From: Synergistaceae bacterium
GTDB lineage: Bacteria; Synergistota; Synergistia; Synergistales; Aminobacteriaceae
DNA length: 35,839 bases
Assembly (NCBI GenBank): GCA_017447325.1
Contig: JAFSNU010000128.1
Span: forward strand, 1-35,839
Reading direction: 5' to 3'
The translations under genes were made by a program, and so were the position numbers. Positions 1 to 32,123 of the stretch are shown in pieces; the first letter of the stretch is position 1; each line of letters starts with the position of its first letter. The notes under the pieces are model-generated. The model did not search any database, had not been told where the DNA came from, and saw nothing but the letters and a program-made list of their open reading frames with translations.

Positions 1-9
1 GGGAAGAGC

Positions 10-1866
10 GTGACTGTACCAGCTAACTACGCATCGGCGCGAAAAAATCTTGAGAAGTTTTTTGCTTTAAGCCCGGCAGCGATTGATCTTTGCGAGTTCA
101 TGTATCTTATGCAAACGAACTCAAAATTGAGAGAATATTTTGATATATCCCTTAAAATATGGGATAGGGATAAAAAAGATATTCTAGCTTATATTCTCGA
201 TATGAACTCCTCAACGCTGGAACTGGAGGCCTCTGAGCTCAACGTATGCGGAATAACTGAACACATGTGCTGGGAATTTTATTCTAATAAGCTCCTCAGC
301 AGTATGGTCATCTCTCTTTGGGAGGCTACGGGTGCTGACAACATCGATAGATTCTTTTACTCGCCGCTGGAAGGCAATATCCTGCCACTCGAGAAATTCC
401 GTGTTTCAGAAGAGGATTTACGTTACGTCAAGGGGCTTTTAACTTCTAAAAGTGATACTCCTGTTCATATTTTACTTTATGGACCTCCAGGCACGGGTAA
501 GACAACTTTTGCCCGTAGTCTTGCACATGACTTAAAAATTAGGGCATGGAATATTAACAGCGGAGAAAACGACGATGATAGGAACCGCCGTGCAGCTCTC
601 ATCGCCGGTTTGAATATTGCCTGCAAAAAGACTAACGGCTTCGTCTTAGTGGACGAGGCGGAGCGTTTACTGGACACAAGCTGGCACGGCGGAAGTTTTG
701 AGAAAGACAAAGCATGGTTAAACTCTTTATTGGAAAAACCGAAAAATCATGTTATCTGGATTGTAAATCACGCCAGCCATATAGACTCCGCCGTACTGCG
801 TCGCTTCTCATTCAGTGTTAAATTTAATACACTGAACAAACAGGAACGTCATGACATGTGGGAGGACATCATTGACAGACATAATGCAAAAAAGTATTTT
901 ACCGAACCCCAAATAGAAACTCTTGCAGAGAGGCCTAATATATCGGCTGCTGTTATGGAAAAAGCGGTAACTCAGGCAAAAGAACTTGGATACAAGAGCA
1001 AGGAATTTTTACCAGCTGTAGAATGTTCTCTGAACGCTTATTCCGCTCTTGTTAGCCCCATAGAAATAACAAGTAGAACAAAAAGAACTAAAAATACAAT
1101 AAAAACTGAAGCGGCTCAGAATTTTACTCTTGATGGAATTACTGTTGAAGAGTCGATAAGCGACTTGATAGCGCGTTTTCGCCGAGCTGATGAGGTCATG
1201 CGAAACGATAAGCGTAAACTTACCGGAGGCTGCGCTTCATTATTATTCTATGGACCTCCTGGTACAGGAAAGACAGCTTTGGCCAGATATATTGCTCAAG
1301 AACTGGGGCGTAATTGTATAATTCAGCGAGCCAGCGACCTGCTTAGCTGTTATGTAGGCGACACTGAAAAGAAGATTGCTTCAGCCTTTAGCAGGGTAGA
1401 GGAGGAAAATTCCCTGCTTATTATTGACGAAGTAGATTCGTTTTTGTTCTCTCGGAAAATGGCTCAACGTTCCTGGGAGGTTAGCATGGTAAATGAATTT
1501 TTAACAAGGCTTGAAGAGTGCCGGTCATTCTGTATCTGCACAACTAATCGTTTTGAGGATCTGAATGATGCAGCGCTTCGAAGGTTTTCCTACAAAGTGG
1601 CCTTTAAATATGCCCAGCCATCTCAACTTATGGCTTTATATAACGCGTTGCTCTCGCCGTTGTGCGAAGCTCCTTTGCCTGCGGATCTTGAAAAGGAGCT
1701 TAAAAGCTTCTCACATTTGACGCCCGGCGATTTTCGTACTGTATGTACTCAATACGGTTCTCTATTTTCAGATGAGCCATATGTACAACACGATACGTTT
1801 ATCTCAGCGTTACGAAAGGAAGAGGGCCTAAAATCGGGCTTCCTGAGCCGAACAGCCGGATTTTAA
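10..1866 (+). CDS. Tandem AAA+ ATPase with two P-loop modules; possibly 5'-partial
   Basis: Two Walker A motifs (LLYGPPGTGKTTFA and LFYGPPGTGKTALA), each followed by a Walker B (VLVDEAERL and LIIDEVDSF) and an LRRF sensor/arginine motif. The frame is open back to base 1, so the GTG at 10 may not be the true start. TAA stop. Confidence 0.85.
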   Translation: MTVPANYASARKNLEKFFALSPAAIDLCEFMYLMQTNSKLREYFDISLKIWDRDKKDILAYILDMNSSTLELEASELNVCGITEHMCWEFYSNKLLSSMVISLWEATGADNIDRFFYSPLEGNILPLEKFRVSEEDLRYVKGLLTSKSDTPVHILLYGPPGTGKTTFARSLAHDLKIRAWNINSGENDDDRNRRAALIAGLNIACKKTNGFVLVDEAERLLDTSWHGGSFEKDKAWLNSLLEKPKNHVIWIVNHASHIDSAVLRRFSFSVKFNTLNKQERHDMWEDIIDRHNAKKYFTEPQIETLAERPNISAAVMEKAVTQAKELGYKSKEFLPAVECSLNAYSALVSPIEITSRTKRTKNTIKTEAAQNFTLDGITVEESISDLIARFRRADEVMRNDKRKLTGGCASLLFYGPPGTGKTALARYIAQELGRNCIIQRASDLLSCYVGDTEKKIASAFSRVEEENSLLIIDEVDSFLFSRKMAQRSWEVSMVNEFLTRLEECRSFCICTTNRFEDLNDAALRRFSYKVAFKYAQPSQLMALYNALLSPLCEAPLPADLEKELKSFSHLTPGDFRTVCTQYGSLFSDEPYVQHDTFISALRKEEGLKSGFLSRTAGF

Positions 1867-2170: not shown

Positions 2171-3019
2171 ATGAATACTCGGGAAAAATTGATAGCTGTA
2201 TTTCAGGACACTCAGAAATTTTACGCGGAAAATAAAATCCTTATTGATGCCGTGAAGTATGGAAAGGAATATACCGCGCTTTATGAAACAGATGATTACT
2301 CTCCTTTACCGCAGTCGTCCGGAGAGCGAGATGGAGAAATTCAGGTTATTAAAGCCAGAAGTTTTGAGGCGGCCATATCCGCACATAAGAGTTTTCCGCA
2401 AAAGAAGATTGCCGTACTTAATTTTGCCAGTGCAACACACCCCGGCGGCGGCGTAAAGCATGGCAGCAGAGCTCAGGAGGAAAGCCTGTGCCGATGCTCG
2501 ACGTTATTCCCTACTATAGACAGAAAATGGCTTTGGGAGAAATATTATAATGTCAATCGAAGCCGTAATGATTGCCGCTACTCTGATGCCTGTATTTATT
2601 CCCCGGGCGTTATCATCTGCAAGACTGATGAATATATCCCAAAGAGAATGGAGCCAGAGGATTTTGTGACGGTTGACGTTATTACCTGCGCGGCGCCAAA
2701 TCTTAGACATGAACCTCTTAACTGGCGTAACTCTGAGACCGGGAAATTAGTGAGAATGAATCCGGGGCAGCTTTACGATCTGCACGTGAAGAGGGTAAAG
2801 CATATTCTGAATGTAGCGGCATCGAACGACGTTGATATTTTAATTCTTGGTGCTTTCGGATGCGGAGCCTTCAAGAACGATCCTTATACTGTCGCGAAAG
2901 CCCATCGTACCGCCCTTGATGAGTATAAAAACAAGTTCGACCGAATTTTATTTGCAATTTATTGCCGAGATTATGAAACGGAGAATTTTAAGGCTTTTAG
3001 TCAGTTTTTTAGTAAATAG
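2171..3019 (+). CDS. PARG-type macrodomain protein (TIGR02452/DUF2263-like); putative (poly)ADP-ribose glycohydrolase
   Basis: NFASATHPGGGVKHGSRAQEESLCRCS matches the PARG signature GGG-X6-8-QEE. A second conserved block is ILGAFGCGAFKNDP. SD AGGAGG lies upstream of the ATG. Confidence 0.8.
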   Translation: MNTREKLIAVFQDTQKFYAENKILIDAVKYGKEYTALYETDDYSPLPQSSGERDGEIQVIKARSFEAAISAHKSFPQKKIAVLNFASATHPGGGVKHGSRAQEESLCRCSTLFPTIDRKWLWEKYYNVNRSRNDCRYSDACIYSPGVIICKTDEYIPKRMEPEDFVTVDVITCAAPNLRHEPLNWRNSETGKLVRMNPGQLYDLHVKRVKHILNVAASNDVDILILGAFGCGAFKNDPYTVAKAHRTALDEYKNKFDRILFAIYCRDYETENFKAFSQFFSK

Positions 3020-3060
3020 TGCGGATACAGATATAAAACCATTTAAGGAGGAATAATAAA

Positions 3061-3837
3061 TTGAACGAGTCTGGAAATTTTATTGTTATAGGATTAGGTG
3101 ACATGGGATGCACTGCTTTGAGTTCAATGCTGGAGCATAGCGTTACCGATTTCAAGTTTGTCGCGGTGAATAATCCTGCTAATGGACTTTCTGAGCTTCA
3201 AAATAACGTCAAGATATGGAAAGCGGAAATGCTTATTTTCGTTGCCGGAATTGAATATTACGCAGAAAATGGAATTATTCATAATTTTATTCGATCTATT
3301 CATGACAACGATATTTTGACGTTAGGGCTTGCCTTTTCCTCTTGCAGTTCACAAGGCGAAGACAACGCCAGAGCATACCTTGACGCGCTTATAACCTTTG
3401 ATAGTACCGATGGGGCAGTACAATGCGTCCAATGTATAGCAAACCTTCTTTTGACTGAGCGAGGAAATAATATCTTTAATGCTGGAATAATTATTATGGA
3501 CTTAGCGGACATCAGAGCCGTTCTGTCTAACGCTGGGACTGCTGTATTTGGAACAGGATATGCCAAAGGAGCCGACAGAATGAGACAGGCCGCAAAAAAA
3601 GCTATTCAATCCACCTTTATAGCGGATTCTCTAAAAAATTTTAATAGAATTCTTATTAATATCACTGCGGGCAGTGATGCCACTCTCGCAGAGATGATTC
3701 CAGCCTTAAAATTTCTCGAAACATTAGCAGCGCCTGACACAAATATTATATGGAATAATGTATTTGCAAAAGAAATTAGGGAAAGCGTTCGAGTGTCAAT
3801 TATCGCGGCAAAGAAAGATGAGCAAGATAGAGTTTAA
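3061..3837 (+). CDS. Truncated, degenerate FtsZ/tubulin-family paralogue; nucleotide-binding motifs lost
   Basis: The C-terminal half aligns by eye to FtsZ: IMDLADIRAVLSNAGTAVFGTGYAKGADRMRQAAKKAIQS, ILINITAGSDATL, PDTNIIW and VRVSIIAA correspond to NVDFADVRTVMSEMGYAMMGSG...RAEEAAEMAISSPLL, VLVNITAG, ATVVIG and LRVTVVATG. T1 GGGGGNA is replaced by GDMGCTA. The T4 GGGTGTG position reads GIEYYAENG, and the T3 region is absent. TTG start sits 9 nt after AAGGAGG and 41 nt after the PARG-like stop. Confidence 0.65.
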   Translation: MNESGNFIVIGLGDMGCTALSSMLEHSVTDFKFVAVNNPANGLSELQNNVKIWKAEMLIFVAGIEYYAENGIIHNFIRSIHDNDILTLGLAFSSCSSQGEDNARAYLDALITFDSTDGAVQCVQCIANLLLTERGNNIFNAGIIIMDLADIRAVLSNAGTAVFGTGYAKGADRMRQAAKKAIQSTFIADSLKNFNRILINITAGSDATLAEMIPALKFLETLAAPDTNIIWNNVFAKEIRESVRVSIIAAKKDEQDRV

Positions 3838-4278: not shown

Positions 4279-4701
4279 CTAAAAATTGTCTCTTGTTTCG
4301 TACATAGTAACTGCTTCTTTCGCTTTAAGCAAAAGATCGGGAGCGAGCTCTGATGAGTCCGCCCCTCTCTCAAACAGCAGTTTGATGATAGGCGCTTCAC
4401 GTTCGAGTTCGTCAGAAGATACTGCATACATAAGCGCAGTCCAGCCTTCGCTGTCCTTTGCGTTCACGTCAGCCCCGCAGTCCAATAAGGCATTTACGAC
4501 ATCGAAAACGTTTGAGCGTAACAACGTCATATTCTTAAACTCCTTATCATCAATTAAACCCAAAATAGACAACAAAATTTCTAATTCTACTATGTCGCCT
4601 GACGCTGCCAACATCAAAAGGGTTGTTCCATCGTCACTTTTTGCCGTGTTGACATCTATATTGCGGCTCTTGAAAAATTCCACAATTTCATCTTTTGTCA
4701 T
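4279..4701 (-). CDS. Ankyrin-repeat protein
   Basis: Ankyrin consensus blocks GTTLLMLAASGD, LLDCGADVNAKDSEGWTALMYAV and LLFERGADS. It is the lone minus-strand gene in this block. Confidence 0.8.
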   Translation of the reverse strand: MTKDEIVEFFKSRNIDVNTAKSDDGTTLLMLAASGDIVELEILLSILGLIDDKEFKNMTLLRSNVFDVVNALLDCGADVNAKDSEGWTALMYAVSSDELEREAPIIKLLFERGADSSELAPDLLLKAKEAVTMYETRDNF

Positions 4702-7190: not shown

Positions 7191-8576
7191 TTGAACGAGC
7201 TACAACGCATGTATGAGCGTGAAGACTTTCAGCTCTTTATTCTTTATGGCCGGAGGCGCGTAGGGAAGACAAGCCTGTTAAAGGAGTTCTGCAATAACAA
7301 GAATTCGCTTTTCTTCTCCGCTGAACTTAACAGCAGCAGGGCAAATCTTGAAAAATTTTCTCAGAGAATCTTTCAGCATTACGGTGATCCTCGAGAAGAG
7401 CCTTTCGTCTCATGGGAGAGTGCGTTTCTCTATATTAATAATAGGCAGATGACAACGCGGCTTGTTCTAGTGATCGACGAATTTCCATATCTTGCGGAAA
7501 GTACTCCATCGCTTTTATCCGAACTTCAAAACGTCATTGACCATCATCTTCAGGAGAGCGGACTGTTTCTTATTCTCTGCGGCAGTTATATGGGATTCAT
7601 GGAGAAAGAAGTTCTTGGATCAAAAAGCCCTTTGTTCGGAAGACGTACAGGACAAATGCACCTGAAACCCTTTGACTACAGGACGAGCGCGGAGTTTATG
7701 GAAGGCTTCAGGATTGAAGAAAAATTCATGCTTTACGGCGCGTTTGGCGGTACTCCAATGTATTTAAGGCAAATCGACAGAGAAAAATCATTTAAAGAAA
7801 ATATCGTCAATTCTTTCCTGTTTCCTACAAGTTATCTTTACGAGGAGCCAGTCTTTCTTCTCCGTGAAGAAGTTCAACAGCCTGGAGTCTATAACTCGAT
7901 TATTGAGGCTATTGCCAGCGGCGCGTCAAAGGCCAGCGAAATTTCCTCCAAAACAGGAGAGGAGACCGCTAAATGCTTGAAATATATTAAGACCCTGCGC
8001 GACCTCGGTATTCTCTATAAAGAAGTTCCATTCGGAGAGAAAGACTCTTCGCGTCGGACGCTGTACGGCATATCAGATTTCCTGTTTCGTTTCTGGTATC
8101 GCTATGTGTTCAGCAACAGGACGCTTCTTGAAACGGACGCTCAGGAAATTGTCTGGCAACGCAAAATCGAGCCTGACTACAGTACTTATATGGGGCTTGT
8201 CTTTGAGCAGATATGCCGTGAATACCTTTTGCATCAGAACAGCGCAGGTAAACTTCCCATACTTTTTACTAAAATAGGACGTTGGTGGGGAACGGACGCA
8301 AAGTCTAAACGGCAGATAGAAATCGACCTGATAGCACAGGACGGAAAGGACACTATTTTCTGCGAGTGCAAGTGGCGGAACGTTCCGGCAGATATAAACA
8401 TGTTCAGGACGCTATGCGACAGAGCAGAGCTATTCATGTCAAATAAGGACGATAAAGGTCATATAGGATTTATAATCTTCTCAAAAAATGGCTTCACAGA
8501 TGACATCCTGAATGAAGCCAAAAGACGGGGAGATTTATTGCTTATTGGCCTTGCGGATCTTTTTAATAATAATTAA
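7191..8576 (+). CDS. Arch_ATPase/ORC-like P-loop ATPase fused to a DUF234-type PD-(D/E)XK nuclease-like C-terminus
   Basis: Walker A ILYGRRRVGKTSLL and Walker B LVIDEFPYL. The C-terminus IGRWWG...IEIDLIAQDG...IFCECKWRN carries a D...ExK nuclease-like motif. TTG start. Confidence 0.8.
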   Translation: MNELQRMYEREDFQLFILYGRRRVGKTSLLKEFCNNKNSLFFSAELNSSRANLEKFSQRIFQHYGDPREEPFVSWESAFLYINNRQMTTRLVLVIDEFPYLAESTPSLLSELQNVIDHHLQESGLFLILCGSYMGFMEKEVLGSKSPLFGRRTGQMHLKPFDYRTSAEFMEGFRIEEKFMLYGAFGGTPMYLRQIDREKSFKENIVNSFLFPTSYLYEEPVFLLREEVQQPGVYNSIIEAIASGASKASEISSKTGEETAKCLKYIKTLRDLGILYKEVPFGEKDSSRRTLYGISDFLFRFWYRYVFSNRTLLETDAQEIVWQRKIEPDYSTYMGLVFEQICREYLLHQNSAGKLPILFTKIGRWWGTDAKSKRQIEIDLIAQDGKDTIFCECKWRNVPADINMFRTLCDRAELFMSNKDDKGHIGFIIFSKNGFTDDILNEAKRRGDLLLIGLADLFNNN

Positions 8577-8915: not shown

Positions 8916-9833
8916 ATGAATTGGAGCAGTGTTCAGAAATACCGCAAAGATATCGTGAAAGATTTACGTGAAGCGCTCGAAAGAGGCGTAGCACCTTGGC
9001 AGAAACCATGGAGCGAAGTTGAGGACGGAATGCCGCGAAACGCACTTACGGGACATTTCTACAGCGGCAATAACGCTTGCAGGCTTTATTTGAAACAGCA
9101 GCTGATGCACTATACTGATCCCCGATGGCTCACGTACCGCCAGGCGCAAGGGATGAAGAGGGATATAAAAACAAAACTCGGAGAAGTTGGGACGTATATT
9201 TGGGTCTGCGTAGACGCCGATCGCAAGCAATACATACCGCACGTAGTTTTCAATGCCCAACAATTTGATGGTTTAACGTGTTTAAAGCCCTATGTCCCCA
9301 AAGTAGAGAAACGCGCGCCAGTTGAAAAGAGATGTGATAAGGCCGAAAGGATTTTACGTGAATCAGGAGCAAGAATCTTGTACGGAGGCAACAGAGCTTA
9401 TTATTCACCTTTAGACGATTATATAAAGATGCCTATGCTTAGGAGTTTCGACACCTCAGCTGATTATTATGCAACAGTACTTCATGAATTAGCACACTGG
9501 ACAGGACACGAAACCAGACTCAATCGTGATCTTTCCGGCTGTTACGGTACAAAATCATATGCTTTTGAAGAACTTGTTGCTGAAATAAGCTCAATGTTCG
9601 TCTCTGCTGAAACAGGAATAGACCAAACCAAAGAACATTTTGACAACCATGCGTCATATGTAAATTCATGGCTGGAAGTCATCGGTAAAGACGATGAGGT
9701 ATTGTTCGGTGCGGTTGGACTTGCGCATGAGGCAGCGGAGGAAATTTTGAAGCATGAACGTAAACGAGAAAGCAAGAATATTTCAGAAACGTCATATCTT
9801 TTGCGTTATTGGGATCCTTCCAGTATTTTTTAG
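8916..9833 (+). CDS. ardC: ArdC-type antirestriction protein: N-terminal ssDNA-binding domain plus C-terminal HExxH metalloprotease
   Basis: N-terminal APWQKPW motif. C-terminal LHELAHWTGH (HExxH) and YAFEELVAEISSMF. GGAGG SD before the ATG. Confidence 0.85.
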   Translation: MNWSSVQKYRKDIVKDLREALERGVAPWQKPWSEVEDGMPRNALTGHFYSGNNACRLYLKQQLMHYTDPRWLTYRQAQGMKRDIKTKLGEVGTYIWVCVDADRKQYIPHVVFNAQQFDGLTCLKPYVPKVEKRAPVEKRCDKAERILRESGARILYGGNRAYYSPLDDYIKMPMLRSFDTSADYYATVLHELAHWTGHETRLNRDLSGCYGTKSYAFEELVAEISSMFVSAETGIDQTKEHFDNHASYVNSWLEVIGKDDEVLFGAVGLAHEAAEEILKHERKRESKNISETSYLLRYWDPSSIF

Positions 9834-10200: not shown

Positions 10201-10830
10201 ATGTTAGACAGGTTAGAGATAAGAGGAAAGGTAAACACAGCAATTTTTGCTACTCTAAGGTTGTTGAAGATAAGGCCATAGAACAGATATGCCGCATGTG
10301 CGACTACCCTTGCACCAAGGGCAGGGCTCGAACATACGCATCATGCCCGACGTTCATGCCGGAAAAGGCTGTACATAGGCACAACTATGAGGCTTATCGA
10401 TAAAGCAGTCCAGAACATCATAGGGGTCGATTTAGGATATGGAATCTACACGGTGAATTTAGAGCGTGACAAGATTGATTTTGAGAAGCTGGACGAGGCC
10501 GCTCATGCTGGCGAAAAAGTGTTAATACCAGTCAATATGAAGGATGGTTCTGTACTCGCTATAGGCAGGAGAAATGCTGATTGGAACTATTCTGCGTCAC
10601 ACGGAGCCGGATGCATTATGTCCAGAAGCTCTGCAAAAGAGAAGTTGAGCATGGAGGAATATCGCATGACGATGGAGGGTATTTACACGACCTCTGTCAA
10701 CGAAAGTACGCTGGACGAAGCTCCGATGGCGTATAAATCTCTGGATGATATTATAGACGTAATTTCTTAAACTGTGGATGTAGTTGACGTCATGAAACCT
10801 GTTTATAACTTCAAGGCATCCTATAATAGC
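10201..10830 (+). pseudogene. rtcB: RtcB RNA ligase remnant with frameshifts, an internal deletion and an in-frame TAA
   Basis: RtcB-like blocks are spread over different frames: LEIRGKVNTAIFA; VVEDKAIEQICRMCDYP; MPDVHAGKGCTIGTTM (read across frames); IGVDLGYG. The C-terminal part reads LIPVNMKDGSVLAIGRRNADWNYSASHGAGCIMSR...EGIYTTSV..STLDEAPMAYKSLDDII, then TAA (10768-10770), then TVDVVDVMKPVYNFKA. Total length is roughly half of a normal rtcB. Confidence 0.7.
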
Positions 10831-13966: not shown

Positions 13967-16892
13967 TTGAGAGACAAAAAAGATGAGATAGTCTCAACAA
14001 ATCCAGTTATGTCCGATCATCTTAAAATCAACTATCGAATTATTGACGATAAACTCGGATTTGCCGGAGCGAAGACAAAGTTCTCACGCAATATTGATAT
14101 TATATGCACTCTGAAAACTATCGAGAAAGAGAACAGACTGGCTAATCTTCAAGAACAGGAAATTTTATCGAAGTATGTTGGGTGGGGAGTTTTACCGCAG
14201 GCATTCGATGAGCATAATGAGGTATGGCATCGTGAATATAGCGAGTTAAAAAGAGTTCTGACCAACGAAGAATACAAGGCCGCGCGAAGTTCTACTGTAA
14301 ATGCTCACTATATCTTGCCTACGATTGCTCGAGCCATGTTTGATGCTTTAGAACGTATGGGGTTTTCAAAGGGCAACATTCTTGAACCATCTTGCGGCAA
14401 AGGAAACTTCTTCGGTGTTCTTCATGAGAGTATGAAAAATTCCAAACTATACGGCGTGGAGCTTGACAGTATAACAGGACGGATTGCCAGACAGCTCTAT
14501 CAAACAGCGGATATCGCCATTAAATGATATGAAAATACTCATTTCTACGATAATTGTTTTGACGTCGCGATTGGTAATGTCCCATTTGGGAATTATAAGG
14601 TTGTTGATGCCGAACACAAGTACGACAGGGATAATTTCAGAATACACGATTATTTCTTTGCCAAAACGCTGGACAAGGTACGCCCCGGAGGCATTATCGC
14701 CTTTATCACATCTAAAGTAACTCTTGACAAGTCAAACCACTCTGTCCGCCAATATCTGGCGCATAGAGCTGATTTATTAGGAGCGGTGCGCCTTCCCAGT
14801 GACGCATTTAAGGATAACGCTGGGACGGAAGTAACAACGGATATTATTTTTCTTCAAAAACGGGATTATCTTATAGACGATATTCAACTTGAATGGCTGA
14901 ATATCGCGCCAAACCGTAATGGAATACCTATTAATAACTATTTTGTACATCATCCTGAGATAGTTTTGGGAACGATAATTCAAGAGTCCAAGCTTTATCA
15001 TGGCAACGAAAAAGAGACATTGTGTAAACCTTTTAAGGGAGGCAATCTTGATGAAAAGCTCAGGACAGCATTAGGGCATATACATGGACAGATTACAAAC
15101 AAAGGAATTCAGACAAATGGGACATTGGCAGATACAATTCCAGCCGATTCCAACGTGCGTAACTTCAGTTATACTCTTATAGATGGAAAACTATATTATA
15201 GAGAAAATTCCGTAATGTATACGCCTGATCTTTCAATATCGGATATGGCTCGCGCAAAAGGAATGGTAGAATTAAGAGACTCTTGCCGGTCTGTTATTGA
15301 TGCACAGATCGCAGGAGATGATGACGAGAAGTTACATACTTTTCAAAATCAGCTTAATGATATCTACGATTGTTTTGTCTCCAGTTATGGCCGTGTCAAT
15401 GATGCTGTTAATGCGCGGGCTTTTAATGAGGACAGTTCTTACTACTTGCTATGCGCTCTTGAAAACATGGATGAGAACGGACGCTTTATCGATAAGTCTG
15501 ATATGTTTACTAAGAGGACTATCCGTCAAAGCAAAATTCCAAATTATGTAAATAACGTTCAGGAGGCTTTGTTATTATCAGTCTCAGAAAAAGCCCGTGT
15601 ATATATGTCTTCATTGACCGGAATGACTGAGAAAAAACTGATCCAAAACCTCAAAGGCGAGATATTCAGGCTTCCATCTGACGGCGAAGCAGCCGTATAT
15701 TTAACGGCGGACGAATATTTGTCCGGCAACGTCCGTGAAAAACTGGAGATTGCCCTAATATACGCCGAACAAGAGCCTCAACTTTACGAGAGCAACGTCG
15801 AGGCTCTTGAAAAAGTACAGCCTGTTCCATTAACAGCAACTGATATTGATGCTCGTTTAGGCGCTATATGGATTGTCCCAAAGTACATTCAAGATTTTAT
15901 CTATGAGCTTTTGCAAACGCCTGATTATATCAAACATATAATAGAGGTCAGCTATTCTCAAGTAACTTCTATGTGGAATATATCAGGAAAATCGGTCGAT
16001 TCTGGTAATGTTTTAGCAAACACAACCTATGGTACTTCTGAATATAAACGCTTATAAAATTATCGAAGAAACTTTAAACCTTAAAACGGTAAAAATATTC
16101 AGAAACGAAAAAGACGCTGACGGGAAATATAAGCACGTTCTCGACACAGAGGTCACAGCAATAGCCCAGCAGAAGCAGGATGAGATTAAACAAAAATTCA
16201 GGGAATGGATTTTTGAGGATTCTGATCGGCGGTGTGTGCTTATTGAAGAATATAGTAAGCGTTTCAATTCTACCCGAGCACGGGAGTATGACGGAAGTCA
16301 TCCGCACTTTGAAGCTATTAACCCTGATATTCATCTTAGAGAGCATCAGAAAGACGCTATTGCCAGTATTTTATATGGCGGGAACACTTTACTTGCACAT
16401 GAGGTTGGAGCTGGTAAAACTTACGAGATGGTAGCTGCGGCAATTGAGGGGAAACGTTTATGATTATCTCATAAAAGCCTTTTTGTAGTTTCTAATCATC
16501 TGACAGGGCAGATGGCTGCTGAGACGCTAAAGCTATATCCGGGTGCTAATATCCTTGTCGCCACAAGGAAAGACTTTGAAACCCGTAATCGTAAGAAGTT
16601 CTGTGCGAGGATTGCTACAGGCGATTATGATGCGATTATAATTGGGCATAGTCAATTTGAAAAAATCCCGGTATCAAGGAAACGTCAAGAATGCTTTATT
16701 CAGGAGCAGATTGACGAGATTACAGATGGAATTAAAGAATTACGACGGCCATTTCCTCAAGCGGAAGAACTCAGAGAAAAATCCGCGCGTCTGGCAAGGC
16801 TCAATATCGAGTTAACAATGCCTGAGCAACAAAACGCAGCCTCCAAAACGTCAACGGATAATTCTGATGATGATATGGTCACTACACTTTAA
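13967..16892 (+). pseudogene. Giant conjugative-element N6-adenine DNA methyltransferase/SNF2-type helicase, degraded by 2 in-frame TGA codons, 1 frameshift and a large internal deletion
   Basis: MTase motif I ILEPSCGKGNFFG and motif IV AIGNVPFGNYKV, followed by IHDYFFAKTLDKVRPGGIIAFITSK. Helicase motif I LLAHEVGAGKTYEM. TGA at 14525-14527 and 16461-16463 with the frame otherwise continuous. A frameshift near 16035-16045 separates TTYGTS from NINAYKIIEETLNL. After DAIIIGHSQFEKIP...QIDEITDGIKEL the sequence jumps to a C-terminal-type tail and stops, so the helicase C-domain is missing. The 5' end may also be decayed (13618-13966). Confidence 0.85.
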
Positions 16893-24701: not shown

Positions 24702-24754
24702 ATATACATCTTTTTGAAAGAAAAATCAAGTTGAGAAAAAGGAGACAAATTTTA

Positions 24755-26044
24755 ATGAGCGATAATCAAGAGTTTTATTTAATTAATGCTTTTGCTGATG
24801 CCGTCGGTATCGCTGCCCAGAATTTAAGAAGATTAGACAGGCGCGGGGTTTTTAAGCCTCATCATGTAGATGAAAAAGGTCGCCGTTATTATTCGCGCGA
24901 ACAAATCGCAGAAGTTGAGAAAATAAGAGACAAAATTAATCCGCGCAAAATCACCCCACCTGTTGAACTCCGTGAACGTTTAGGATATGGGCGAAAAGAT
25001 ATAAGCAAAGTTGTCGGCTGCGGGATTGAAAATTATGAAAGAGGAATAACTAATCCTTCGTTAGAATTTATCGAGGATTTAACTAAAATCTATGAAGTCC
25101 CCTTCGCGGAAGTGCAAACTGCTTTTGACGCCGTGCGTAAGCCGTCAACCCGCAAGACGGATTTTGAAAATGCAAAAGCCGAAGTCATGCCTAACAGATG
25201 GGACAAAGAGACAATGACTGAGCCGATGCGTATTCGTAACGAGGCAGGGTTCACGCGTCCGTTTGTCTGCGATTTATTAGATTTAACCGAACACACATTA
25301 TTTGGGTATGAAAAAGGAGATATCCCCGTCACGCTTGAAGTTATCGAGGCGTTGACAAAAATATATGATGTCTCTTTTATAGTTTTGCAAAAGGCCTTTG
25401 ACAGTCTGCGCGATTCGCAAGAGGGCAAGAAAAATTTTAATAATATTATCGCGGTACAAAGTCAAGGCGTGTCAACGCCCGCTGAGCTGCGCTTTCAATC
25501 GAAGTTGACAGCTAATCAAATTAGCGAGGCCTTGGAAATAACGTTGGCTGCATTGACGAGATATGAAAATGGTTCTTGGCCTGTCCCCTTAAAAGTTGCA
25601 GAAGATATGGCAGCTTTATATAACATATCGATTAATGAAATAAGAAAAATATTCGCGCCTCTCAGTAAGATGCCGGAATTAGAAGATGTGAAATATCTTG
25701 ACAGGGTAAGCATTTGGGAGAAGAGCATTACTCAGCCCATGGCTTTACGTCAAAGAATAGGTTTTTCCCGCCAGCAAGTTTATAAATTTATTGGCGTCGG
25801 ACACGCAGCCCTTACGCGTTATGAAAAAGGCGAGAGCGAGATACCTTTAGATGTTGCGGAAGATTTAGCAAAATTATATAATGTTACTATAGATGAGATA
25901 AGAAAAGTTTTCGCGTCTGTCCGTCGGCCTCGTCAACGTAAGCCGAATTTTGATTTATTAACAAATATCCGCCGGAAAGATTTTAAAAAATTAACGGAGG
26001 AGTTTCGGCAAAAATACAAACAAACGACAAACAATGATTTTTAA
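24755..26044 (+). CDS. Multi-HTH DNA-binding protein: an N-terminal MerR-type HTH plus four tandem XRE-like HTH repeats
   Basis: The MerR-like N-terminus is YLINAFADAVGIAAQNLRRLDRRGVFKP...GRRYYSREQI. Four repeats of about 85-90 aa follow the pattern (E/A)LR...G(F/Y)(S/T)R...(L/I)...YE(K/R/N)G...P(S/V/L)...(I/A)E(D/A)L(T/A)K(I/L)Y(E/D/N)V...E(V/I)(Q/R)K(A/V/I)F. The track start (TTG at 24731) is probably too early; the ATG at 24755 follows AGGAG. Confidence 0.75.
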   Translation: MSDNQEFYLINAFADAVGIAAQNLRRLDRRGVFKPHHVDEKGRRYYSREQIAEVEKIRDKINPRKITPPVELRERLGYGRKDISKVVGCGIENYERGITNPSLEFIEDLTKIYEVPFAEVQTAFDAVRKPSTRKTDFENAKAEVMPNRWDKETMTEPMRIRNEAGFTRPFVCDLLDLTEHTLFGYEKGDIPVTLEVIEALTKIYDVSFIVLQKAFDSLRDSQEGKKNFNNIIAVQSQGVSTPAELRFQSKLTANQISEALEITLAALTRYENGSWPVPLKVAEDMAALYNISINEIRKIFAPLSKMPELEDVKYLDRVSIWEKSITQPMALRQRIGFSRQQVYKFIGVGHAALTRYEKGESEIPLDVAEDLAKLYNVTIDEIRKVFASVRRPRQRKPNFDLLTNIRRKDFKKLTEEFRQKYKQTTNNDF

Positions 26045-26329: not shown

Positions 26330-26446
26330 TAATTTTCATCACAAGCTCGTGCTTTGTTATTTTTAAATTATTCGGCTTGTATTGTATAAGCGCATTATAA
26401 ACAAAACGAAGCGCGGGATAAAATATAAAAGTTTGTCGCGGCTCTG

Positions 26447-27571
26447 CTACATGTTCACGAGTTCGCCGTGCAGAGCTCCGGCCTGATTAATCGCCTGCAA
26501 GATCTCGATTATATCGCGAGGACTTGCGCCTAATGAGTTAAGCACTCTCACCATGTCGCGCACTGTCGTCGTCGAGGGCATCGCTACCATGCTCGTGCCG
26601 TCCTCTTCTGTGCGAACATCTGTTCTGTGCACGACGGCAGTCTGGCCTTGAGAAAATCCCTCGGGCTGAATGACGTTCGGATCGTCTGCAACTGTAACCG
26701 TCAAATTTCCATGAGCGACTGCAACAGAACTAATTCTAACGTTGCCGCCCATGACGACAGTGCCAGTGCGCTCATTAACTGCAACTTTAGCCGAGCTGTC
26801 AGGCTCTATCTCCAATTTCTCCATGTTCGCAATAAACGCAGTCGGCGCAGCTATGTACTGCCCGGGCAAATTTATATCAACGCGCCCCGCGTCACTCGCC
26901 GTTGCTACAGCTCCGAAACGTCGATTTATTGCGTCGGCAATGCGCTGCGCTGTTGTAAAATCAGGATCGCGTAATAATAAAGCTAATTGTCCGCCCTCCG
27001 CGTATTCCATAGGCACATCACGCTCAACTATTGCTCCGCCCGGGATGCGCCCGTTAGTCGGAATATTTATCGTCCGTGACGCGCCCGCTCCGCCGGCTGT
27101 AAATCCTCCGACTAAGACCGAACCCTGAGCGACTGCGTAAACATTTCCGTCGGCTGCTTTAAGCGGCGACTGCATTAAAGTTCCGCCCTGCAAACTCGAC
27201 GCGTTGCCTATCGAACTAACTCTAACGTCAATAGGCTGGCCGGGCCTCGCGTAAGGCGGCAAGTCAGCAGTCAAAGACACGACCGCTATATTGCGCGTCC
27301 TTACTGAACGAGCATCAAGCGTCACGCCGAAATTACGCATTAAATTTCTCATCATCTGAACGGCCATCTGCGAGTTGTCGCCCGTTCCGTTTAAGCCGGT
27401 GACTAATCCAATTCCAGTAAGCTGGTTATTCCTCGCGCCCTCTATATCAACTATATCTTTAATTCTAACTCTGGGATTAAGCCGCGAATAATTCATGTCC
27501 TGCAAGTTCACAGCCGCGAACGCCTGCGAGCTTATTAAAATTAAAATTAAAACTAAATAAATTTTGCGCAT
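26447..27571 (-). CDS. flgI: Flagellar P-ring protein FlgI
   Basis: Signal peptide, then RIKDIVDIEGARNNQLTGIGLVTGLNGTGD and the C-terminus LNSLGASPRDIIEILQAINQAGALHGELV, both typical of FlgI. Confidence 0.95.
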   Translation of the reverse strand: MRKIYLVLILILISSQAFAAVNLQDMNYSRLNPRVRIKDIVDIEGARNNQLTGIGLVTGLNGTGDNSQMAVQMMRNLMRNFGVTLDARSVRTRNIAVVSLTADLPPYARPGQPIDVRVSSIGNASSLQGGTLMQSPLKAADGNVYAVAQGSVLVGGFTAGGAGASRTINIPTNGRIPGGAIVERDVPMEYAEGGQLALLLRDPDFTTAQRIADAINRRFGAVATASDAGRVDINLPGQYIAAPTAFIANMEKLEIEPDSSAKVAVNERTGTVVMGGNVRISSVAVAHGNLTVTVADDPNVIQPEGFSQGQTAVVHRTDVRTEEDGTSMVAMPSTTTVRDMVRVLNSLGASPRDIIEILQAINQAGALHGELVNM

Positions 27572-27574
27572 GAT

Positions 27575-28147
27575 TTAAAATACCGCCTGCAAAATCTGCG
27601 TCACTACACCGGGCTTTTGAGTTCTTGAGATAGTTCCGCGGCCTTTCACGGCAATTTCAGCGTTGGCTATAAGCGAGCTGTTAATCTGATTATCGCTGTT
27701 CACGTCCTGCGGGCGGATAACGCCTATTAACTGGAACTGCAAAATTTCCTCGCTCGTTCTAATATCGCGCGTGCCTTCGATTACTAAATTTCCGTTGGGC
27801 AGAACTTCAGTCACAAGACAGGCAAGCGTCGCCGTCGCGTGATGCTTGCGCTCTATCGAACCGTCTCCGTCGCTTGTGCTTGAAGTTGACAGGCTAAGAC
27901 TTCTAATAAATTTCAAAATTCCCGTCCCGTCGCTGACTGAATTATTGGAATTTTTAGTCAGCTCCATTGTCGCCTCGTCCTTCGCGTCAGTGCGCTCATT
28001 CACTAATACCGTCACAATATCGCCGACGCGTGACGGCCTTGTGTCGCCGAACCAGTTATTATTGTCGTTCCAAAGCGACGCGGCACTTGCACAGCCCGCG
28101 CCTGCAAACGTCAAAATTAATATTAAGCTCAAAAATTTTTTAGTCAT
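27575..28147 (-). CDS. flgH: Flagellar L-ring lipoprotein FlgH
   Basis: Lipobox FAGAGC, then VGDIVTVLVNERTDA and NGNLVIEGTRDI...LIGVIRPQDV. The stop lies 3 nt before the flgI start. Confidence 0.9.
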   Translation of the reverse strand: MTKKFLSLILILTFAGAGCASAASLWNDNNNWFGDTRPSRVGDIVTVLVNERTDAKDEATMELTKNSNNSVSDGTGILKFIRSLSLSTSSTSDGDGSIERKHHATATLACLVTEVLPNGNLVIEGTRDIRTSEEILQFQLIGVIRPQDVNSDNQINSSLIANAEIAVKGRGTISRTQKPGVVTQILQAVF

Positions 28148-28203
28148 AAATCAATCATCGCCTCCAGAAATAATTTTAAATTAATTTTAAATTTAATTTA
28201 AAT

Positions 28204-29262
28204 TTAATTTATAGCTGCCTCAACAGTATTTTCATTTATTATATACGCTTTAATTATATTTTGCTTGCGGGTGTTGCGGCTGCTTGACGCGACTTTCACG
28301 CTCACCAAATCCCCGGGCTTGCCGTCCTCTGCTAACACTCCCGACGACGTCGCTATTATCCCGCCTAACCTCGCGATAATTTTTACGCGCGTGCCCTTCT
28401 TGATATTATTCGGCCCGGATAATAAAGCAAGCTCGATCGGCTCGCCCTGCTTTATAGCTTTACGCGAAATATTATCTATAACTTCGCTCTCACTCACTGC
28501 GTAAACTCCAGGCTTTGTAATTTTTATACTGCGTCTCATTAAGTCCTGCGGCCTTATGGGCTTGTCTCTGGGTATAGTTCTCGCGGCAACTAAAACGTTT
28601 TGACTCCAAATCATCCTGACGGAAATAGACTTCACGCGGCCTTTATTTTTATAATCGCGAAATTTCAAAGTCGCTGCCGCAGTCCCGGGCGTAATAGTTG
28701 ACGGCTCGACCAAAACGCCGGGCGGAACCGGCATGTTAGAGCTGACTTCAACGCCGCCGTCCCACGCCGCTAAAGATTTTATTAAATTACTTAAATTTAA
28801 ATTATTATTATTAAATTCCGGCTCGCTCTCGGTCTCGTTGCCCTCGTAAGACGGCCGCTCAACAAAAATTTTTGCCGGAGCTTTAAGCTCTATGCGCGTG
28901 TTCTCAAGTCCGCTTGACTTTACAGCATTTAAAATTTGATCGCGCGTTAAAATATATCTTTGCGCCTTAACTTTATTTTTATTATTTATAACTTCAGGCT
29001 TCGCAGATAATATTAAATCGTCAAGCCTTGATTTTATATTAGCGTCGGCCTCGATGTGAGCGATTTCTCCAAGCCTAAACGCGCCGTTCACGTCCTGAAT
29101 ATAAATTATTGACGGGATTTCAATTCTCGCAGTCCGCGCCGCGTGTGCATCAACACAGCATAGCAAGATTAACAGCATAAAAAAATTGCGGAGAGCTGTA
29201 ATTAAACTTCTCCGCTTTAAATTAAATCTTAAAAATTTATTAACGTTTAAGGCCATTGGCAA
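28204..29262 (-). CDS. flgA: Flagellar P-ring assembly chaperone FlgA
   Basis: C-terminal SAF/FlgA block KKGTRVKIIARLGGIIATSSGVLAEDGKPGDLVSVKV and an N-terminal signal-like segment. The start is uncertain, because the 5' end overlaps the flgG stop. Confidence 0.75.
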   Translation of the reverse strand: MPMALNVNKFLRFNLKRRSLITALRNFFMLLILLCCVDAHAARTARIEIPSIIYIQDVNGAFRLGEIAHIEADANIKSRLDDLILSAKPEVINNKNKVKAQRYILTRDQILNAVKSSGLENTRIELKAPAKIFVERPSYEGNETESEPEFNNNNLNLSNLIKSLAAWDGGVEVSSNMPVPPGVLVEPSTITPGTAAATLKFRDYKNKGRVKSISVRMIWSQNVLVAARTIPRDKPIRPQDLMRRSIKITKPGVYAVSESEVIDNISRKAIKQGEPIELALLSGPNNIKKGTRVKIIARLGGIIATSSGVLAEDGKPGDLVSVKVASSSRNTRKQNIIKAYIINENTVEAAIN

Positions 29263-30031
29263 TTCTTAATAAATCATCAGCGGTCTGAATGCCTTTAGAA
29301 TTAGCTTCGTACGCGCGCTGTGCGACTATCATCTCGACCATCTCTTCAACAACCTGAACGTTGGACATTTCAATAACATTCTGCCTAACTTCCGGCATTC
29401 CGTCCGTGCCGGGCTGGGCGACTATCGGCGCACCGCTCGCGTCCGTCTCGACAAACAATCTGTCGCCTACAGCACGCAAGCCCGCAGGATTTATAAATCT
29501 CGCAAGCTCAAGCTGTCCGATCTCCTGCAGTGCTGTCTCGCCCGCTATTCTCACGCTGACAAGTCCCGTGTTAGACAGGCTTATGCTCTCGGCATTATTC
29601 GGCACTGTCATTGCCGGCTCTAATAATAATCCATCTTCGCTCACTATATTCCCGTCGTTGTCAAGCTGCCACGCTCCGGCGCGTGTATAAGCTATCGTTC
29701 CGTCCTGCTGCGTGACTTGAAAATATGCGCCGTCGCCGGTTATAACCCAGTCCAACGGATTGTCAGTGACTTGAAAGTTGCCCTGAACGCCAAAGCTCGG
29801 CGTTGCGATAACGCGAGTTCCAAGTCCGACCTGAATTCCAGTCGGGATTACAGAGTTCGGCTCAACCGGCGCGCCAGGCTCTCTATAAATCTGATACATC
29901 AAGTCCTCAAAGTCCGCGCGGCGCTTTTTATATCCCTGCGTATTAACGTTCGCTAAGTTATGCGACACCACGTCTAAATGCGTTTGCTGCGCTATCATTC
30001 CTGACGCGCTCGTCCAAAGTGAACGCAACAT
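29240..30031 (-). CDS. flgG: Flagellar distal rod protein FlgG
   Basis: MLRSLWTSASGMIAQQTHLDVVSHNLANVNTQGYKKRRADFEDLMYQ and the C-terminus VEEMVEMIVAQRAYEANSK. Confidence 0.9.
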   Translation of the reverse strand: MLRSLWTSASGMIAQQTHLDVVSHNLANVNTQGYKKRRADFEDLMYQIYREPGAPVEPNSVIPTGIQVGLGTRVIATPSFGVQGNFQVTDNPLDWVITGDGAYFQVTQQDGTIAYTRAGAWQLDNDGNIVSEDGLLLEPAMTVPNNAESISLSNTGLVSVRIAGETALQEIGQLELARFINPAGLRAVGDRLFVETDASGAPIVAQPGTDGMPEVRQNVIEMSNVQVVEEMVEMIVAQRAYEANSKGIQTADDLLRIANGLKR

Positions 30032-30065
30032 TTTTATTTAACTCCTCCCATTTATATAGCTTAAA

Positions 30066-30872
30066 TTATCCTCTACTATAAGACGTAACTAAACGGCTTG
30101 TCATATCGTCATGCGTCATTAAAGCTTTGGACGCGCCCTCGTAAGCTCTCTGCGCTTCGATCATGCGCACCATTTCCTCAACTACGCTCACGTTCGACAT
30201 CTCGAGCGCATGTTCAAAAAATCTCGGGTTCGCTATGCCTTCAGCCTCGCCTGATTCTTGAGTTACGGCCAATAAATTTTTGGCGGCTTGTCTCAAGTAA
30301 GTAGGCCGCTCGAAATTAAAAATCTGCAAGTTGCCGACAACATTTCCGTCCGCTATGACTTGGCCGCGCCGATTTATATTAACGCTTCTTGCGTTGCCGA
30401 CTGAAAGACCGCCGCCGTTGCCTTGCAGCTGCATTCCGTTCGGCGTGATTATATTTCCGGCTGCGTCGAGCGTGAAATTTCCTTCCCGTGTGTAATACGT
30501 GTTGCCCTCTTCGTCAGCGACCGCGAAAAATCCCGGGCCGTCGATAGCAACGTCTAACGGATTTTCAGTCGTCTTGACAACGCCGGGTGTCGTGTCCATT
30601 ACGTCTTCAGAATATATATTTGCAAGTGCCATTGTGCCGATAGTCTGCTTGCCGCGCCAGTTCATCGTGAAGGGCGGCGTTGTCATTAATTTTGTCTCGC
30701 CGTCCTCCGAAATTTTCTCTATTCTGTCCATATACGCGCTGAACTCAGCATTGGCCGAGACGCGCTTCTTAAAGCCGGGCGTGTCAACGTTGGCTAAATT
30801 ATTCGCCGTCACGTCAAGATTAGTCTCTTGAACCAGCATCGCCGAACACGCGGCGTAAAGTCCTCTATGCAC
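30066..30872 (-). CDS. flgF: Flagellar proximal rod protein FlgF (FlgG paralogue)
   Basis: N-terminus LDVTANNLANVDTPGFKK and C-terminus SNVSVVEEMVRMIEAQRAYEGASK. Confidence 0.8.
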   Translation of the reverse strand: MHRGLYAACSAMLVQETNLDVTANNLANVDTPGFKKRVSANAEFSAYMDRIEKISEDGETKLMTTPPFTMNWRGKQTIGTMALANIYSEDVMDTTPGVVKTTENPLDVAIDGPGFFAVADEEGNTYYTREGNFTLDAAGNIITPNGMQLQGNGGGLSVGNARSVNINRRGQVIADGNVVGNLQIFNFERPTYLRQAAKNLLAVTQESGEAEGIANPRFFEHALEMSNVSVVEEMVRMIEAQRAYEGASKALMTHDDMTSRLVTSYSRG

Positions 30873-30981
30873 AGTCTCACCCTTTTCTCAATTAATTATA
30901 TTTCTAAAATTTTAAATGCGCTTAATTAAACATACTTCCAAAATATTATTCGGATAAATTTAATTTAAAAATTAAAAATTA

Positions 30982-32028: not shown

Positions 32029-32123
32029 TACAACATTACAAGCCTTCTTTATAAATTTTAAAATTATAAAATATTTATTTATTATATAATAAATAAACTA
32101 AATTAAACTCTAAACTAAAACAG

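Follow-up and report, generated by a model that had tools for sequence, protein, structure and literature searches.

FtsZ and tubulin proteins are nucleotide-driven polymers. The stretch of DNA analyzed here, a 35,839-nucleotide contig of a Synergistaceae bacterium (assembly GCA_017447325.1, contig JAFSNU010000128.1, forward strand; hereafter the window, at its full length), encodes a relative of FtsZ, which we call FtsZl, in which the elements that drive polymerization have largely been pruned. FtsZl is a true FtsZ paralogue, but it stands outside FtsZ proper, from which it departs in its motifs, its score against the curated family profile, its tail, and its genomic location. The gene is not placed in a dcw cluster within the window; its neighbors, on a mobile island, encode an AAA+ ATPase, a PARG protein, and an ankyrin protein. 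The gene and its features, all on the plus strand, are as follows.

3046..3052, plus strand: ribosome-binding site AAGGAGG, 8 nucleotides 5' of the TTG start (direct sequence reading)
3061..3837, plus strand: FtsZ-like pseudo-GTPase (FtsZl), 258 residues (open reading frame; Pfam, NCBIfam, AlphaFold, Foldseek)
3091..3117, plus strand: degenerate T1 loop, GLGDMGCTA, where FtsZ has GVGGGGxNA (alignments, per-position table)
3205..3231, plus strand: junction at the missing S3/T3/H3, about 39 residues gone, reading NVKIWKAEM (alignment gaps, model)
3247..3273, plus strand: former tubulin signature (T4), GGGTGTG in FtsZ and now GIEYYAENG (alignments, per-position table)
3451..3474, plus strand: copy-specific insert of 8 residues, LTERGNNI, between H7 and T7, also the site of a nonsense allele (alignments)
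3484..3510, plus strand: T7 (synergy) loop, GIIIMDLAD (per-position table, translation)
3535..3810, plus strand: FtsZ C-terminal (GTPase-activating) domain, S7-S10 (Pfam match at residues 159-250; PDB alignments)

Profiles recognize FtsZl by its C-terminal half. FtsZ_C is the sole Pfam domain matched (E 1.1e-17, residues 159-250), the Pfam scan giving no match to the Tubulin/GTPase domain, and the NCBIfam FtsZ profile TIGR00065 scores the protein at 83.5 bits, below its cutoff of 295. FtsZ sequences from the PDB are about 37% identical to residues 138-253 (E 1e-20), and their S1-H1-S2 region aligns weakly to residues 9-51; PADLOC-DB 2.0 and PHROGs return zero profile matches. An AlphaFold model computed from a 22-sequence alignment is confident (pLDDT 87.9, pTM 0.87) and predicts the element order S1-H1-S2-H2-S4-H4-S5-H5-S6-H7, followed by the C-terminal domain. 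In Foldseek, the entire model superposes over its full length on FtsZ crystal structures (E 7e-21, TMq 0.75-0.81), whereas viral tubulin/PhuZ structures match much more weakly than cellular FtsZ (E 1e-9 to 1e-4, TMq 0.5-0.66). Judged by the model, FtsZl is predicted to possess a complete two-domain FtsZ fold, a match far above chance.

Within this fold, motif status was read from alignments with canonical FtsZ and from a per-position table in E. coli numbering. The initial annotation, made from the letters alone, had assigned the degenerate T1 loop and the altered tubulin signature as listed above, and both assignments agree with the alignments and with the table. The absence of T3, likewise claimed there, proves to be part of a larger deletion: S3/T3/H3 is gapped in the alignments, including all six T3 columns, residues 52-56 replace about 44 FtsZ residues, and the AlphaFold model has neither S3 nor H3, its H2 (residues 39-47) running directly into a strand at 57-63. 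The table further records a shortened T5 and the deletion of T6/H6 and of the base-contacting H7 residues, which that annotation did not mention. At its C terminus, the protein stops 8 residues past S10, with neither a linker nor a C-terminal peptide, in keeping with the proposed loss of an FtsA/ZipA-binding tail; Synergistaceae FtsZ continues for about 100 further residues after S10 and ends in AYDQPAIFRK. The T7 loop reads I-M-D-L-A-D against N207-V-D209-F-A-D212 in E. coli: D147 corresponds to D209 and D150 to D212, and I145 replaces N207. The two aspartates are therefore kept, as annotated, in a C-terminal domain whose similarity to FtsZ is strongly backed by Pfam, PDB, and Foldseek, and the nucleotide pocket is not intact. 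The insert preceding T7 is the lone low-confidence part of the model (pLDDT 57 at residues 131-140). Read in this way, FtsZl has no credible nucleotide pocket, and none of GTP binding, hydrolysis, and polymerization is predicted; it likewise lacks the receiving (top) polymerization face and the membrane-tether tail.

FtsZl belongs to a family that becomes visible only as searches gain sensitivity. A word-indexed protein search with the single sequence returned just one copy, 99% identical. An exhaustive protein search added weakly related short proteins and one with an ankyrin fusion; its best-scoring match, P0002 (840 residues), has a tandem pair of complete, intact FtsZ modules joined by a proline-rich linker. 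A profile search recovered about a dozen proteins of 255-272 residues in which FtsZ_C is the sole detectable domain, along with several full-length FtsZ proteins that have two unusual motifs in common with the family, LITKSGFVNLDF.DIKAIL and VIWGHVIDE. These full-length proteins are taken to be housekeeping FtsZ because P0154, one of them, sits in a murC-murB-ftsA-ftsZ cluster. The clade as a whole comprises about 25 related proteins of about 260 residues plus ankyrin-fused versions, and FtsZl fits its architecture (about 255-272 residues, only FtsZ_C detectable, S3/T3/H3 and T6/H6 deletions at the same places, no tail). Neither our literature searches nor the database names of its proteins give the family a name or a description. 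In a scan of one genome per species, the two shared motifs are nearly confined to rumen Synergistaceae/Fretibacterium metagenome-assembled genomes; the loci are mostly dcw-cluster FtsZ, eight have a short paralogue or an ankyrin fusion, and some genomes have both types. A pattern specific to the FtsZ-like proteins, NLDFEDIKAIL, found two loci in metagenome DNA, both of known cassette types.

Some family members carry a second moiety. In these, a degenerate FtsZ-like N-domain is followed by 200-650 residues of ankyrin repeats, and the gene usually comes directly after the short FtsZ-like gene; they occur at the following places.

L002:10816-13431, FtsZ-like-ankyrin fusion
L003:8797-11400, FtsZ-like-ankyrin fusion
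L007:7009-8469, FtsZ-like-ankyrin fusion
L023:6900-9809, FtsZ-like-ankyrin fusion
L026:10597-13446, FtsZ-like-ankyrin fusion
L072:25-2739, FtsZ-like-ankyrin fusion
Protein P0009, FtsZ-like-ankyrin fusion

The source of the family can be placed. A neighbor-joining tree of 138 columns from the C-terminal half, with 200 bootstraps, unites all short paralogues and ankyrin-fused N-domains in one clade (80%) that includes FtsZl. The sister of this clade is Synergistaceae FtsZ, itself supported at 99%, and the union of both receives 84%; the sister relationship argues for descent of the family from the ftsZ of its own host lineage, and an origin by duplication of rumen Synergistaceae/Fretibacterium ftsZ is well supported. 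The comparison with the housekeeping protein of the same lineage (P0154) is thus one between sister groups that have the fold and the two motifs in common; FtsZl differs in having no T1-T6 function, S3/T3/H3, H6, linker, or C-terminal peptide and in residing on a mobile island, not in dcw. Scans of IMG/VR with the family profile and with FtsZl itself found no relative, so nothing indicates that the family is phage-borne, and tblastn against plasmid and phage collections gave ordinary FtsZ C-terminal matches only, with no close relative.

What the family has kept is as informative as what it has lost. Across 18 other short members, the per-position table finds the GTP-contact positions all lost, yet N207 is present in 18 of 18, D209 in 16, and D212 in 17. 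Compared per sequence with the Synergistaceae FtsZ consensus, identity by element is 0.84 for S9, 0.73 for T7, and 0.57 for H10, as against 0.37 for S7, 0.32 for H9, and 0.39 for S10. In high-resolution filament structures of S. aureus FtsZ, the longitudinal contact is made by T7, H8, S9, and H10 of the upper subunit and by H1/H2, T3, T5, and the H6-H7 loop of the lower one (bioRxiv 10.1101/2021.11.29.470395). The family thus retains the donor face, with T7, S9, and H10, whereas three of the four acceptor elements, T3, T5, and the H6-H7 loop, are gone. Purifying selection on the family is well supported: the pairwise ratio of nonsynonymous to synonymous substitution rates (dN/dS) is about 0.2, with five pairs at 0.16-0.27 in both protein halves and one further pair at 0.65. 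Because the ratio is low in the N-terminal half too, the pruned N-domain is maintained by selection as well.

The gene lies in a segment whose content sets it apart from the core chromosome (GC 39.6% in the island and 45.7% in the core). A tRNA scan found none anywhere in the window. The other features are as follows.

1..1866, plus strand: tandem AAA+ ATPase, C-terminal 621 residues of 756, cut by the window's left edge (Pfam, two AAA domains)
2171..3019, plus strand: microbial-type PARG/TIGR02452 macrodomain protein, 42 nucleotides upstream of the FtsZ-like gene (Pfam, NCBIfam)
4279..4701, minus strand: 140-residue ankyrin-repeat protein, convergent with the FtsZ-like gene (Pfam Ank_2, E 1.4e-14)
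7191-8576, plus strand: ATPase_2 plus DUF234 protein (PADLOC PDC-S27, a single-gene defense candidate, E 5.9e-60)
8916-9833, plus strand: ArdC-type protein (ArdcN plus zincin MPTase-PolyVal)
10387-10770, plus strand: RtcB fragment of 127 residues, the last quarter of RtcB only
16029-16463, plus strand: open reading frame of 144 residues with a weak helicase N-terminal (ResIII/DEAD) match
24731-26044, plus strand: 437-residue protein with a MerR-type and three or four Xre-type helix-turn-helix domains, at the island/core boundary
About 26400-32030, minus strand: core chromosome, flgI, flgH, flgA, flgG, flgF, and mreB (GC rise, gene content)

The AAA+, PARG, and ankyrin neighbors are intact. At 99.5% identity, the AAA+ fragment matches residues 136-756 of the complete gene found in L008, a longer contig with an identical FtsZ-like gene. 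Its second domain is IetA-like (PADLOC, 1.3e-45), which invites comparison with IetAS; yet the protein is a tandem AAA with an extra N-domain, scores far under the NCBIfam IteA cutoff (135 bits versus 510), and has no IetS protease alongside it in the window. The PARG assignment rests on Pfam PARG_cat_microb (E 2.7e-35) and on TIGR02452 (172 bits, cutoff 50), and the repeats of the window's ankyrin protein look like those of the FtsZ-like-ankyrin fusions of L002, L003, and L007. In L008, a WYL-WCX regulator gene lies upstream of, and divergent from, the AAA+ gene, which is followed by PARG, the FtsZ-like gene, and the convergent ankyrin gene. The upstream side also encodes DnaB_C and primase-polymerase-like proteins and a single-stranded DNA-binding protein; downstream are the DUF234 ATPase (PADLOC PDC-S27), ArdC, the RtcB fragment, and DpnD/PcfM. 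The PDC-S27 match implies that the island carries at least one further defense-like gene, ArdC together with DpnD/PcfM in L008 suggests a segment resembling the leading region of a conjugative element, and the RtcB and helicase fragments point to decay within the island.

Related genes recur on mobile or variable islands, in WYL-regulated cassettes of two types. In the first (L004-L007, L020, L092, L102, and L103), the order is AAA+, small protein, FtsZ-like gene, and PD-(D/E)XK nuclease, with a WYL gene nearby and several overlapping stop/start codons. In the second (L002, L003, L023, L026, and L072), an FtsZ-like gene, an FtsZ-like-ankyrin fusion, a nuclease gene, and a WYL gene occur together, and stop/start overlaps join the FtsZ-like, FtsZ-like-ankyrin, and WYL genes. 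The window's AAA+ protein is about 49% identical to those encoded next to other FtsZ-like genes (L002, L004, L007), and its element combines this orthologous tandem AAA+ ATPase with a WYL regulator, the latter seen in L008. The sister-cassette nuclease matches the PADLOC candidate PDC-S26 (5.6e-57). PARG is found near the FtsZ-like gene at three loci (the window, L003, and L021); in the window it fills the slot that in sister cassettes is taken by a protein of 187-219 residues without a family match.

This small protein is an observation in its own right: in cassettes without PARG its gene always lies between the AAA+ and FtsZ-like genes, with overlapping stop/start codons, and it has zero matches in Pfam, PADLOC, and PDB. 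It is found at the following places.

L004:6297-6956, small protein
L007:4341-4904, small protein
L021:70-1309, small protein, perhaps two copies
L103, small protein

The initial annotation named the gene an FtsZ paralogue. Its paralogy to FtsZ holds, but it is no lone division gene: it belongs to a conserved cassette of mobile elements that has AAA+, WYL, PARG, nuclease, and ankyrin members. The AAA+ family itself reaches much farther, with 533 matches at E<=1e-20 in Synergistaceae, Desulfovibrio, Mailhella, and Oscillospiraceae. Elsewhere on mobile elements it has no FtsZ-like gene beside it and adjoins WYL/WCX regulators, ADP-ribosylglycohydrolases, a Macro domain, and nucleases (among L098, L099, and L101, ADP_ribosyl_GH lies by AAA+ in L099 and L101, and Macro in L101). 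The combination of AAA+ with WYL/WCX, ADP-ribose-removing enzymes, and nucleases has the look of a separate, so far undescribed conflict module, and the FtsZ-like gene is a Synergistaceae-specific component of this broader, variable conflict-type neighborhood.

We tentatively posit that FtsZl is a non-polymerizing FtsZ mimic whose role, in a conflict cassette of either defense or counter-defense, is that of bait or decoy to proteins that target FtsZ. Such a protein could not bind nucleotide. Its top face would accept no further subunit, since T3, T5, and the H6-H7 loop are gone, and the membrane would be out of its reach, since it has no C-terminal peptide; deprived of nucleotide, top face, and tether, it would be unable to join or build a Z-ring. 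What the family preserves is the T7/synergy-loop face (T7, S9, H10), the surface at which FtsZ inhibitors are aimed, while regulation and output would fall to its AAA+ ATPase, nuclease, and ankyrin partners. Phage T7 Gp0.4, SulA, and MciZ all bind the FtsZ synergy-loop surface, and the CapRel-Ebc immune protein is triggered by the Gp0.4-FtsZ complex (PMC13423816). A look-alike barred from the Z-ring would be a harmless mimic of this surface, and a context of nuclease, AAA+, ankyrin, and WYL genes fits an immune or counter-immune cassette. A narrower version, in which the family is the integrated decoy of a new kind of bacterial immune cassette and captures phage proteins aimed at the synergy-loop face and either neutralizes them or signals to the AAA+, PD-(D/E)XK nuclease, and ankyrin proteins, is doubtful. 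The PARG neighbor also suggested a decoy substrate for Tre1-type toxins, which ADP-ribosylate FtsZ at R174 (PMC8120803); a direct decoy of this kind was rejected, the H6-H7 segment with the target residue being deleted.

Several observations weigh against the bait or decoy reading. In FtsZ generally, too, conservation is highest at T7, S9, and H10, and in seven genome-matched pairs the FtsZ-like gene is not clearly closer to its own host's FtsZ than to others. PADLOC and PHROGs do not contain the family, and any interaction, ligand, or phenotype ascribed to it is a prediction. The setting is equivocal as well. Neither a nuclease nor a nuclease remnant was found in the window, whereas sister cassettes carry PD-(D/E)XK (PDDEXK_4 or Cas4-like). 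The AAA+ family is widespread without FtsZ-like partners, so the linkage may reflect a shared island and not an obligate partnership, and the nuclease and WYL pair could be an independent neighboring system. The remaining objections concern the window's own copy. The change of N207 to Ile is unique to it, as is the insert LTERGNNI; its S9 reads WNNVFAKE in place of the signature WGHVID; and its identities to host FtsZ in T7, S9, and H10 (0.50, 0.30, and 0.44) are no higher than the overall value of 0.42. Alleles within its 90% cluster include D147Y, which alters a T7 Asp, a nonsense allele that ends after T132, and one whose frame shifts near residue 127, and the sole diverged DNA copy of the gene has three nonsynonymous changes and one synonymous.

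The same donor face could instead act on FtsZ. The T7 face would dock on the GTP-bearing top face of host FtsZ and sequester monomers or cap the shrinking (nucleotide-exposing, minus) end; in a variant of this scheme, it would supply D209 and D212 to fire GTP hydrolysis in the manner of a GTPase-activating protein. Cell division would then be disturbed or halted, either to the element's advantage or in abortive infection. We consider such an effector rather unlikely, although N207, D209, and D212 are nearly invariant in a family that has itself given up the nucleotide, the partners of T5 and the H6-H7 loop in the lower subunit, S9 and H10, are conserved and resemble the host's, and with the top face lost nothing would add above. 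Division inhibitors are often encoded by mobile elements, and there is a precedent in ARC3, a protein with an FtsZ-like domain that acts on FtsZ2 and raises its GTPase (PMC12232670). The initial annotation had gone further, predicting that the protein would add to one filament end and block further growth. This does not follow, because FtsZ filaments grow at the T7-loop-exposing end (bioRxiv 10.1101/2021.11.29.470395); a T7-only protein would reach only the nucleotide-exposing, shrinking end or free FtsZ-GTP. A reach limited to the non-growing end or to free monomers counts against an effector, as does the flexible, association-poor T7 face of free FtsZ monomers (bioRxiv 10.1101/2021.11.29.470395). 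Such a protein would also be toxic and in need of tight control. The T7 loop is more degenerate in the ankyrin-fused paralogues (D212 in three of seven, N207 in two of seven), and the window copy carries, besides its diverged S9, the equivalent of S. aureus N208L, which abolishes assembly (bioRxiv 10.1101/2021.11.29.470395). As to the annotated cap-or-decoy proposal, the best-conserved elements of the family are those with which FtsZ docks on the nucleotide of a neighbor (T7, S9, H10), and they match host FtsZ, which fits either role; the window copy, with N207I, a lost S9 signature, and D147Y or truncated alleles, speaks against both. The role of the T7 face comes from conservation, from which bait or decoy and FtsZ binder are computationally inseparable. 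We favor the mimic because the pruning of all polymer competence except the contested face suits a non-toxic look-alike.

These peculiarities of the window copy lend themselves to another explanation, namely that the family is functional but the constraint that once acted on this member is gone, and its contribution is small or nil. No other member is as divergent (25-40% identity to the rest), and this one departs from both family signatures, KSGF(V/I)NLDF(E/A)DI and (V/I)IWGHVID, reading NAGIIIMDLADI and NIIWNNVFAK. N207I, the insert at T7, and the loss of WGHVID would all be expected of a relic, and so would the population alleles. Variants of the gene occur in cluster members from other samples (P0001, P0175, P0173, P0172, P0179, P0177, P0176); the P0173 allele terminates after T132, inside the copy-specific insert, and the nonsense and frameshift alleles each split the gene in two. 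The excess of nonsynonymous changes in the sole close DNA comparison, the fragmentary RtcB and helicase genes on the island, and the missing nuclease partner point the same way. Against erosion, the reading frame is intact and identical on at least nine independent contigs from different samples, it follows a strong ribosome-binding site, its product is confidently folded in the model, its AAA+, PARG, and ankyrin neighbors are whole, and the alleles sampled are too few to test for selection. A mere relic is on balance unlikely, though a serious alternative for this copy; the window copy is a derived member whose mimicry looks eroded, and it may be retuned or decaying. It is perhaps a poor representative, and the family is more interesting than this individual gene.

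More improbable is a GTP-independent structural subunit, in which the FtsZ fold would be an oligomerization or adaptor module, pairing with the ankyrin-fused paralogue or acting as substrate or adaptor of the AAA+ protein and having nothing to do with host FtsZ or its inhibitors. The tandem FtsZ-like and FtsZ-like-ankyrin genes with their overlapping stop/start codons, the recurrent AAA+ neighbor, and purifying selection on the pruned N-domain are all compatible with it, and in other NTPase-centered conflict systems inactive cell-division domains and rare FtsZ/tubulin domains have been proposed as effectors (Kaur et al. 2020, PMC7159879). A nucleotide-free partner, however, explains neither the retention of N207, D209, and D212 nor the host-specific W-G-H of S9, and neither type of paralogue still has the receiving face. 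As for a functional division FtsZ or an alternative cytomotive GTPase of the FtsZm, TubZ, or PhuZ type, the shared fold is outweighed by the lost nucleotide loops, the absence of a Tubulin match, a score far under the TIGR00065 cutoff, the missing tail, a location outside dcw, and the structure ranking, which together effectively refute it.

By analogy, FtsZl would act most like ARC3 or an engineered one-faced FtsZ. ARC3, from plant chloroplast division, resembles it in having an FtsZ-derived domain that is not itself a division GTPase, and it acts on genuine FtsZ, reportedly enhancing FtsZ2 GTPase activity and inhibiting Z-ring assembly (PMC12232670; bioRxiv 10.1101/2024.01.08.574726). ARC3 is, however, eukaryotic, has middle and MORN domains, and belongs to a Min system, whereas FtsZl is 258 residues of FtsZ fold only, with no MORN domain in Pfam; the likeness is one at the level of the FtsZ fold. 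Interface or monomeric mutants of FtsZ (E. coli L178E; S. aureus N208L, D210N, and D213N) are all one-faced and do not propagate filaments, and FtsZl would be their natural, top-face-null counterpart. Those mutants carry engineered point changes and still bind GTP, whereas FtsZl has lost entire loops, and its T7 Asn has been replaced as well. Gp0.4, SulA, MciZ, and CapRel-Ebc define the T7 face as contested in phage-host conflict and FtsZ as a co-sensor in immunity (PMC13423816); Gp0.4, SulA, and MciZ have unrelated folds, FtsZl would mimic the target and not inhibit it, and no CapRel link was found. The idea of inactive division domains in conflict has been raised before, for systems in which inactive MinD/ParA and FtsK domains and rare FtsZ/tubulin domains have been proposed as effectors or decoys (Kaur et al. 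2020, PMC7159879). Those systems are centered on MoxR-vWA or on GTPases, unlike the present one, with its tandem classical AAA+, WYL, PARG/nuclease, and ankyrin components in Synergistaceae.

Natural, selected versions of FtsZ that have lost the nucleotide pocket and the receiving face yet retain the T7 face are essentially undescribed in bacteria, plant ARC3 being the nearest precedent. If the family, whose hosts are uncultured rumen bacteria, binds FtsZ or FtsZ-targeting proteins, it would offer a one-faced FtsZ from nature with which to dissect the polarity of filaments and the activation of the GTPase. It would also point to mimicry of the cell-division machinery, an idea recently made concrete by FtsZ-Gp0.4 sensing, as a currency in the conflicts of phages and mobile elements with their hosts. 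If the family is in addition the integrated decoy of an immune cassette, that cassette would be the bacterial equivalent of effector-triggered immunity based on decoys and would complement the sensing of FtsZ-Gp0.4 by CapRel-Ebc.

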